Positions 29,564 through 30,328 of a stretch of 40,457 bases of DNA are shown piece by piece; within the stretch, counting starts at the first letter, position 1; every line of letters starts with the position of its first letter. A program made the position numbers and the translations under genes. The DNA is from Patescibacteria group bacterium (GTDB lineage: Bacteria; Patescibacteriota; Microgenomatia; JAMCZE01). The notes beneath the pieces were generated by a model that made no database searches, had not been told where the DNA came from, and saw nothing but the letters and a program-made list of their open reading frames with translations. The stretch lies in assembly GCA_023380635.1 (NCBI GenBank), contig JAMCRP010000002.1, positions 1 to 40,457 of the forward strand. Reading direction: 5' to 3'.

Positions 29564-30328
29564 ATGCCAAAAGTTTTGGCCCTGGTTTTGTTGGTAGTCA
29601 TGCTTTTCGCAGCTACCGGGCCGGCATTGGCGGCCTCGTTCGAAGCCGATATTGCTTCCTCATATCCGATTGCTGATAGCCAGGCAGTCTCCGGCGACAT
29701 TTTGATTGCCACAAACCAGGGAATTTCCCGGGCTTCTACCGAATATGACCAGAGACTGTTTGGCGTTTTGACGGATAAAGCGATCATGGTTTTCCGCTCG
29801 GCCGATCCCAATAACAAGCCTGTTTCCCGTTCCGGAATTGCCGTGGTGAATGTGACTAACGCCAATGGTCCGATTTCTAAGGGCGACTACATCACCTCCT
29901 CCGCGACTCCCGGCAAAGGAGAAAAAGCAACCATCTCCGGTTATGTGGTGGGCCAGGCGCTGGAAGACATGACCGGTTCCAGCGGCCAGATATCGGTGGC
30001 TGTCAGAGTTGAATACGCCGAAATCAGTAATGCCCGGACGCTCTCCAGACTGGTCGACTATGTGACCGCCGATGTTTTTCGCAATGTCAAAGATCAGGGT
30101 CAGTTATCAATGGTGTTGCGCTACATTATTGCCGGCTTAATTATGCTGACTTCGATTGCTATTTCCTTTGTCACTTTTTCCCGTTCCGTCCCTAAAGCCA
30201 TTGAAGCGATTGGTCGTAATCCCTTGGCCAGGACAAGTATCATGATCTCTTTAAGCATGTCCATAGGACTGGTAATCGCGACAATTGGATTAGGTTTAGC
30301 GGCAAGTATTGTAATCCTGAGGATTTAA
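29564..30328 (+). CDS. secreted beta-rich domain fused to an ATP synthase c-subunit-like helical hairpin (no ion-binding carboxylate)
   Basis: Signal peptide [25 protein letters not shown]. The C-terminal [67 protein letters not shown] aligns with c subunits (A-V/I-E-x-I-x-R-Q/N-P loop). It is the first gene of the atp cluster. Confidence 0.8.
   Translation: [254 protein letters not shown]

Follow-up and report, generated by a model that had tools for sequence, protein, structure and literature searches.

A c-subunit-like hairpin without the ion-binding carboxylate, fused to an exported domain of predicted phage-like fold, occupies the atpE position of F-type ATPase clusters in Microgenomatia and WWE3 bacteria

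The c subunit of F-type ATPases (AtpE, PF00137) is a hairpin of two membrane helices with both termini on the outer side of the membrane. In canonical enzymes the loop on the cytoplasmic side, E-x-x-x-R-(Q/N)-P, is the binding site of gamma and epsilon, and the gene of the subunit lies immediately upstream of the genes for subunit b and F1. Here we describe a gene, fusC, whose product shares this hairpin, the loop, the length of helix 2 and the position in the operon; the nearest solved proteins are Chloroflexus aurantiacus c (9itj), with which the fusion has the string 'AIGRNP' in common, and Acetobacterium woodii c2/c3 (4bem_A). Unlike an F-type c subunit, the fusion has no Asp or Glu in helix 2, its GxGxGxG motif is reduced to an Ala/Ser/Gly stripe, it adds a signal peptide, a ~125-aa outer domain and a linker helix, and no gene for subunit a lies alongside. 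The gene (29564..30328, + strand, ATG start, 254 aa) was found in contig JAMCRP010000002.1 of a Patescibacteria group bacterium (assembly GCA_023380635.1), of which the stretch from position 1 to 40,457 (40,457 nucleotides; below, the window) was analysed.

Other described systems resemble the fusion in part. The c1 subunit of A. woodii (4bem_J) is a duplicated c protein with a carboxylate-less second hairpin, and like the fusion it presents a Glu-less c-type hairpin in an F-type enzyme. A single copy of c1 enters a ring whose other subunits are canonical c2/c3 from the same operon, and that enzyme pumps Na+. In contrast to c1, the fusion has an outer domain and no canonical c gene within ~10 kb at 160 loci. 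The F1-like ATPases of Mycoplasma (types 2 and 3; the gliding motor of Mycoplasma mobile and the MIB-MIP-linked cluster) have no Fo a or c subunit and are thought to power work other than ion transport. Their clusters encode divergent alpha and beta paralogues beside a normal F1Fo and have no c-like ring protein, whereas the fusion cluster keeps delta, epsilon, a b-like protein and a c-derived protein. No second ATP synthase was in evidence around the fusion clusters, no genome-wide search having been made. The c ring of V-ATPases carries domains on its non-cytoplasmic face (ATP6AP1/Ac45, ATP6AP2 and yeast Voa1), which belong to separate single-pass proteins inside a functional ring; by analogy only, the fusion would place such a domain on every hairpin of a ring without an ion site.

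In the literature, ProAD (PMC11738941) reports 20 F/N-type ATPases with 'non-catalytic' c/K subunits that have no essential Glu/Asp; it describes no fusion, taxonomy or missing a subunit, and the 20 might include proteins of the present family. Mahendrarajah et al. (2023) noted 'minimal complexes' in the Candidate Phyla Radiation (CPR). We found no published description of the fusion, and public records name it 'hypothetical protein' or, under a JGI label, COG0636 (subunit c).

Our best reading is that fusC is the positional and evolutionary descendant of atpE in the Microgenomatia/WWE3 lineage of the CPR. We hold with modest confidence that its product is a derived c ortholog that provides an F-type ATPase with its membrane ring or anchor, without canonical ion movement, and the enzyme is probably unable to act as a normal ion-driven ATP synthase. 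The gene atpE would have been altered in place, gaining an exported phage-derived domain and losing the ion site, and atpB would have been lost from the operon.

To describe the architecture of the fusion, we used an AlphaFold2 (AF2) model built on 43 relatives. The model showed four parts with a mean predicted local distance difference test score (pLDDT) of 90.9, while its predicted template modelling score (pTM) was only 0.59, which leaves the relative placement of the two domains uncertain. The segments of the protein are as follows.

29564..29632, + strand: signal peptide, residues 1-23 (Lys n-region, hydrophobic core and A-x-A motif; predicted cleavage before A24)
29651..30019, + strand: extracytoplasmic beta domain, residues ~30-152 (all-beta in AF2, pLDDT mostly 90-98)
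30038..30091, + strand: linker helix, residues 159-176 (AF2, pLDDT ~73-76)
30101..30217, + strand: hairpin helix 1, residues 180-218, equivalent to the inner helix of c subunits (AF2, hhalign and small-residue stripe)
30203..30229, + strand: cytoplasmic polar loop E214-A-I-G-R-N-P-L-A222 (EAIGRNPLA; conservation and alignment with c subunits)
30221..30322, + strand: hairpin helix 2, residues 220-253, with no acidic residue (I238 codon at 30275-30277, S233 codon at 30260-30262)

A V/A-x-A motif was present at the equivalent site in the aligned relatives, and this sequence pattern suggests cleavage before A24. Given the signal peptide and the positive-inside loop, the outer domain must face outward, and an outward N-terminus is also the topology of a real c subunit. 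A preliminary description of this DNA, made from the sequence alone, had placed a signal peptide before an extracytoplasmic beta domain, and the sequence pattern, the alignment of relatives and the AF2 model agree with both. Its estimate of ~165 aa for that domain was too large, since AF2 gives residues ~30-152 followed by the separate linker helix.

The C-terminal hairpin is homologous to c subunits, and this is established at the level of the family only. In hhalign, a comparison of 32 hairpins of the family with nine canonical c subunits gave a probability of 94% (E 1.3e-7) over 72 columns that covered both helices. When the hairpin profile was searched against 177,635 PDB sequences, all 12 matches at E <= 1 were c subunits, the best being A. 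woodii c2 (E 4.9e-5), A. woodii c1 (6.8e-5) and Chloroflexus c (1.2e-4). Foldseek superposed the hairpin on mycobacterial, Chloroflexus, yeast and cyanobacterial c subunits with TM scores of 0.75-0.86 and a root-mean-square deviation (rmsd) of 1.3-2.0 A. When 11,601 open reading frame (ORF) segments from the window and 80 loci were scored with a hidden Markov model (HMM) built from nine c subunits, fusion ORFs took all of ranks 1-58. The c-like hairpin first proposed from a single protein is thus a real alignment by hhalign, PDB profile search and Foldseek.

The window protein taken alone had no Pfam match, with none to PF00137 at E <= 1, and a marginal match to the subunit c family NCBIfam PRK07159 (E 1.2e-3 over its full length, or 2.9e-4 when only the hairpin was used). 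The profile similarity expected in the preliminary description was therefore absent from Pfam for this protein by itself and present for the family profiles. Among the relatives, ATP-synt_C was the commonest Pfam match (11/43 full-length proteins and 11/32 hairpins), but the matches were weak, with a best E of 9.2e-5. Because the essential carboxylate is missing and the Pfam scores of the family lie under the PF00137 gathering threshold, we treat the fusion as a derived homologue of AtpE without counting it as a member. Identity with AtpZ or AtpI was also considered and rejected, as PF09527 and PF03899 were absent among the first 25 families listed for the 43 full-length relatives and for the 32 hairpins.

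The hhalign alignment placed I238 opposite D61 of E. coli c, and helix 2 of the window protein contained no Asp or Glu at all. The loss extended across the family. At the canonical position, 18 residues after the loop proline (P+18), none of 80 species genomes had D or E, and the residues found there in 313 unique hairpins were mainly Ile (37%), Val (27%), Leu (14%) and Ala (11%), with no D or E. Only 1 of the 43 relatives had an acidic residue in the membrane-spanning part of helix 2, away from the canonical position, and 5/80 species had a Glu at P+7, near the cytoplasmic end. The missing carboxylate, noted at first in the window protein, is thus borne out family-wide in the relatives, the species genomes and the unique hairpins alike.

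A polar residue was conserved five positions before P+18. At P+13, the 313 hairpins had Asn (73%), Ser (12%), Gln (7%) or His (4%); Asn was found in 69/80 species, and the window protein has Ser233. This residue lies within the membrane, and one relative (P0077) has Glu there, so that P+13 might be thought to carry an ion or other ligand, with an unrecognised stator in the place of subunit a. We consider such non-canonical ion coupling very unlikely. Asn, Ser and Gln cannot be protonated and deprotonated, the known Na+ sites need Glu, and no conserved partner with multiple transmembrane (TM) helices was found near the cluster. P+13 also shares its helix face with the small-residue stripe, and it is more simply explained as a helix-packing hydrogen bond.

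In contrast to the ion site, the loop was retained. It is the most conserved segment of the whole protein, with A215, G217, R218, N219 and P220 invariant and E214, L221 and A222 at least 90% conserved in the 43 relatives, and it aligned with the R-Q/N-P loop of c subunits ('QAIGRNPE' in Chloroflexus and 'EAVGRQPE' in A. woodii). Helix 1 had lost most of its glycines, and with them the GxGxGxG motif. Small residues (Ala, Gly or Ser) were nevertheless kept at P-30, -29, -23, -19, -14, -12, -8 and -5, counted from the loop proline, at 85-99% for most of these positions in the 313 hairpins. The proposed loss of the glycine motif agrees with the window sequence, but 'bulky' does not fully describe helix 1, since the small-residue stripe persists. 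In the same 313 sequences both helices showed stripes of small or polar residues with a period of 3-4 residues, as tight helix packing would predict. As selection has kept both the F1-docking loop and the helix-packing faces, we infer, only from loop conservation and packing stripes in the sequences, that the hairpins oligomerise, probably as a ring, and hold gamma and epsilon.

The outer domain (residues ~30-152) is predicted to fold like the cement and head-fibre-base domains of phages. Foldseek against the PDB matched the modelled domain to outer-shell chains of the Borrelia phage BB1 procapsid, the cyanophage Pam3 capsid (8hdt_G) and the N-terminal base of phi29 gp8.5, with E between 6.5e-4 and 1e-3. 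Matches in BFVD were much stronger (E down to 5e-12, rmsd ~2.2 A over ~130 columns, 19-30% identity), and the targets were the N-terminal domains of phage fibre, appendage and tropism proteins. Between 1 and 10 of the 43 relatives had sub-threshold matches to PF23982, PF09956 or PF22758, and the window protein matched PHROG 673 at E 1.3e-5. The outer domain is thus predicted to share the beta fold of phage cement and decoration proteins (Pam3 gp6 8hdt_G, BB1 8pkh and phi29 gp8.5 6qyy; PF09956, PF22758 and PF23982). However, those proteins belong to virion modules, whereas the gene described here lies in a cellular atp operon at 100/104 loci, and its outer domain would leave the cytoplasm by way of a signal peptide and stay attached to a hairpin in the membrane.

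In the window, fusC is the first gene of a tight cluster with the order fusC-b-delta-alpha-gamma-beta-epsilon, in which Pfam names the genes from delta through epsilon. The gap between fusC and the b-like gene is 35 nt, and the intergenic gaps are too small for extra genes. The genes downstream of fusC are as follows.

30363..31031, + strand: b-like stalk protein, 222 aa, with a single TM helix at the N-terminus and then an extended helical stretch (assigned by position and architecture)
31129..31509, + strand: delta (OSCP), short form, 126 aa (PF00213, E 7.5e-7, profile positions 92-172 only)
31552..33102, + strand: F1 alpha (PF00006, E 1e-64)
33167..34003, + strand: F1 gamma (PF00231, E 2.5e-15)
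34083..35486, + strand: F1 beta (PF00006, E 2.1e-67)
35502..35795, + strand: F1 epsilon, 97 aa, beta-sandwich only (PF02823, E 1.9e-9)

We then surveyed the spread of the family. A word-indexed search gave 134 family matches at 90% clustering, and an exhaustive profile search gave 488 clusters at 50% identity (E <= 1e-10), nearly all of them fusions of 250-300 aa. In pattern scans, 200 stretches of GTDB species genomes and 394 JGI metagenome stretches contained relatives. The named sources were Daviesbacteria, Woesebacteria, Gottesmanbacteria, Levybacteria, Blackburnbacteria and Pacebacteria, and the GTDB labels of two metagenome-assembled genomes were Microgenomatia/Daviesbacterales and WWE3; the CPR origin suggested for the DNA was correct. 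Many of the records that hold loci L001-L080 are titled 'uncultured Gammaproteobacteria', 'Saccharibacteria', 'Nanoarchaeia' or 'Methylococcaceae', but their atp clusters resemble those in Microgenomates-group records, so these titles look mislabelled or the bins contaminated. One relative of 80 aa (P0255) is a stand-alone family hairpin with a Met start, no outer domain and no carboxylate, and may be either a truncated gene call or a real unfused form.

The linkage to F1 was counted at loci with at least 4 kb of downstream sequence, scoring an alpha or beta gene within 6 kb downstream on the same strand. Such a gene was present at 66/70 genome loci and 34/34 metagenome loci, or 100/104 in total, and the association with atp genes predicted from the window therefore holds across the relatives. 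Most of the syntenic loci had the full b-delta-alpha-gamma-beta-epsilon order with fusC directly upstream of the b-like gene. In Woesebacteria (L074 1059-2768 and L075 10682-12394), a gene for a protein of ~570 aa, which by eye resembles cofactor-independent phosphoglycerate mutase, lies between the fusion and b-like genes. The exceptions to synteny were L010, L021, L027 and L045. At L027 the fusion gene (10001-10777) is unlinked to atp genes, and its neighbours, judged by eye, are a convergent MreB-like gene, small ORFs resembling helix-turn-helix (HTH) proteins and a giant surface protein.

These data bear on the proposal that the hairpin is a mere membrane anchor of a surface protein with no role in the ATPase, the gene order being a frozen remnant. 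The fold of the outer domain docks fibres and cements capsids in phages, the L027 gene stands away from any atp gene, and the neighbours of the cluster are often surface-protein or glycosylation genes, all of which would suit an anchor. But a mere anchor would not need the loop that contacts gamma and epsilon in c subunits, and this loop is the most conserved part of the protein; the F1 linkage, moreover, persists across sequences down to ~30% identical. We give the anchor proposal very little credence.

The F1 subunits encoded beside fusC retained their catalytic motifs. The beta P-loop GGAGVGKT, or a one-residue variant, was found in 63/65 relatives, the beta catalytic motif G[VI]GERxRE in 61/65, and the alpha arginine-finger motif S[VI][ST]R[VI]G in 67/67. 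With the P-loop, GERxxE and arginine finger intact, the F1 head looks catalytically competent from its sequence. The peripheral stalk showed a different picture. In canonical enzymes the N-terminal extension of alpha, ~27 residues in E. coli, binds delta. The extension here was short, with a median of 10 residues from the most upstream Met and ~3 in the window, and 87% of the alpha genes had fewer than 27 codons between the preceding stop codon and the barrel motif, so the usual delta-binding helix is mostly missing. The window delta covers the C-terminal half of the OSCP profile only, and the delta proteins of relatives have ~160-175 aa. The b-like protein had no Pfam ATP-synt_B match. Together, the short alpha extension, the shortened delta and the weak likeness of the b-like protein to subunit b indicate that the peripheral stalk appears remodelled.

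To look for the remaining Fo subunits, we searched ~10 kb around 160 loci (the window and 80 loci, 1.25 Mb; 80 metagenome loci, 0.72 Mb). No canonical c gene was found in the window or within these neighbourhoods, where the c HMM recovered fusion ORFs only. With E. coli a as the query, phmmer gave nothing better than E 0.69 in the window and the 160 loci. In the PDB, this query picked up the a subunits of Chloroflexus, Bacillus PS3, mycobacteria and chloroplasts with E from 5e-11 to 1e-26, so an a subunit of a CPR bacterium should have been seen. A scan for the R-x-x-[GAS]-N motif in ORFs with at least four TM helices returned one ORF, an 8-TM fragment cut by the end of L002. Apart from fusC, the only multi-TM ORF of the window encodes a protein of 888 aa, which had a weak Pfam match to PTPS_related. 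The window ORFs and Pfam thus agree with the preliminary description that the fusion opens an atp cluster without an a or c gene.

We also asked whether any of ten membrane ORFs near the cluster could stand in for subunit a without being homologous to it, and rejected all ten; they were Wzy_C-TPR, ComEC, FtsW/RodA, LPG synthase, M50 or Rce1-like proteins, and two had no Pfam match. A membrane protein of ~700-780 aa with 11-13 TM helices recurs beside the atp cluster (L021 6065-8326, L035 11889-14219 and L029 7174-9270), and proteins of the same size, identified by size only, occur at L036, L039, L059 and L062. Among the three that were scanned, two had Wzy_C (O-antigen ligase-like) and TPR matches and the one at L029 had TPR only.

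On the reading that we prefer, in which fusC is an atpE altered in place, the hairpins would assemble within the membrane, a c-type ring being the most likely form, and the conserved loop would dock the gamma/epsilon foot of F1. The outer domains, joined to the inner N-terminal helices by the linker helices as spokes, would make up a crown outside the membrane; an 18-residue linker helix (~27 A) could place 14-kDa domains at a radius that fits 8-12 copies, a figure reached by inference only. Without the carboxylate and without subunit a, rotation would not be coupled to the flow of H+ or Na+. The complex would then be a membrane-tethered F1 ATPase, in which an ATP-driven central stalk is joined to a ring with an extracellular domain, and would be neither a chemiosmotic ATP synthase nor an ion pump.

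Several points weigh against this reading. The ~14-kDa outer domains need room on the inner helices of the putative ring. The phage relatives of the outer-domain fold are often trimeric, and the oligomer might for that reason not be a c-type ring. A physiological use for a non-pumping membrane ATPase is not evident. The similarity of the b-like protein to subunit b was weak (9o19_X, E 1.5e-3) and stood among non-specific coiled-coil matches. The search spanned neighbourhoods of ~10 kb, and atpB and atpE may sit elsewhere in the genomes. In Supplementary Data 4 of Mahendrarajah et al. (2023), which covers about four genomes of the Microgenomatia group, one genome (Curtissbacterium) was scored AtpB = 1 and AtpE = 0; if that genome carries the fusion, a subunit a would coexist with it.

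The last two points also favour the main rival explanation, in which the fusion is an accessory or minor subunit of a canonical F1Fo whose a and c subunits are encoded elsewhere, and the enzyme still pumps ions or makes ATP. One or a few fusion hairpins would insert into or plug a canonical c ring, with the outer domain riding on the rotor, in the manner of A. woodii c1 or of the lumenal accessory proteins of V-ATPase c rings. A. woodii c1 is a solved precedent for this arrangement, and the family profile matched both c1 hairpins, including the Glu-less one with 'GQAVAQTTG'. Most other CPR classes in the table of Mahendrarajah et al. (2023), moreover, have complete atpBEFHAGDC sets. However, the canonical c genes of A. 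woodii share the operon with c1 and none was linked to the fusion. No a or canonical c gene was found in the searched neighbourhoods though b stays in the cluster, and the split atp operons known to us keep b with a and c. The fusion also sits exactly in the atpE slot, directly upstream of b, and the first position of the operon suits a high-copy subunit. We therefore regard the accessory role as rather unlikely, while taking it more seriously than the other rivals.

A further step beyond the derived, ion-blind c ortholog is speculative, and we put it forward as a doubtful proposal. A class of the CPR may have turned the F-type ATP synthase into an ATP-driven rotary motor that has no ion path and whose c-derived ring bears a crown of domains like phage fibre bases outside the membrane, so that the torque of F1, or attachment to it, is passed to the cell surface. 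Such a motor could serve an end outside bioenergetics, for example surface remodelling, host attachment or the movement of an envelope structure.

The rest of the window contains an rRNA operon and housekeeping genes, which indicates that the DNA is chromosomal. Directly upstream of the atp cluster lies a giant ORF of 1621 aa (24585-29450) with a MerR-type HTH Pfam match at residues 88-144, a similar segment at ~1-60 and a hydrophobic stretch at ~220-250 (both by eye), a long Gly/Thr-rich body that resembles a tail fibre, and a Peptidase_S74 (endosialidase chaperone) domain at 1315-1380. Pieces of this ORF recur inconsistently beside the cluster in other loci. It was considered as a conserved partner and rejected, as its parts matched only 3-19 loci and showed no similarity to the outer domain.

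The 23S rRNA gene (4021-7619) measures 3.6 kb against a model of 2.9 kb and contains a LAGLIDADG_1 homing-endonuclease ORF at 6176-6616 (E 1.5e-22), which suggests an intron or insertion, as is typical for CPR rRNA genes. The 16S-23S spacer (1866-4021) is unusual; it is ~2.1 kb long and contains a LAGLIDADG_3-like ORF (1959-2486) and three tRNA genes, of which the pair at 2904-2976 and 2990-3061 lies on the opposite strand and the one at 3772-3844 on the same strand. Far from the rRNA operon, a free-standing ORF at 22641-23012 belongs to the PF05635 '23S rRNA intervening sequence protein' family (E 2.8e-14).

The fusion is conserved and widespread, and it undermines a routine inference on the energy metabolism of CPR bacteria. 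Metagenomic studies commonly score 'F-type ATPase present' in these organisms as evidence that a proton-motive force is used or generated. If the ring is blind to ions and subunit a is absent, that inference would be wrong for hundreds of Microgenomatia and WWE3 species, and the question of how their membranes are energised would be reopened. The complex would be a natural experiment, an F1 motor uncoupled from ion flow, and a rare case in which a phage structural fold was recruited into a core bioenergetic complex. It offers a concrete, conserved and abundant target for electron cryo-microscopy or electron cryo-tomography.

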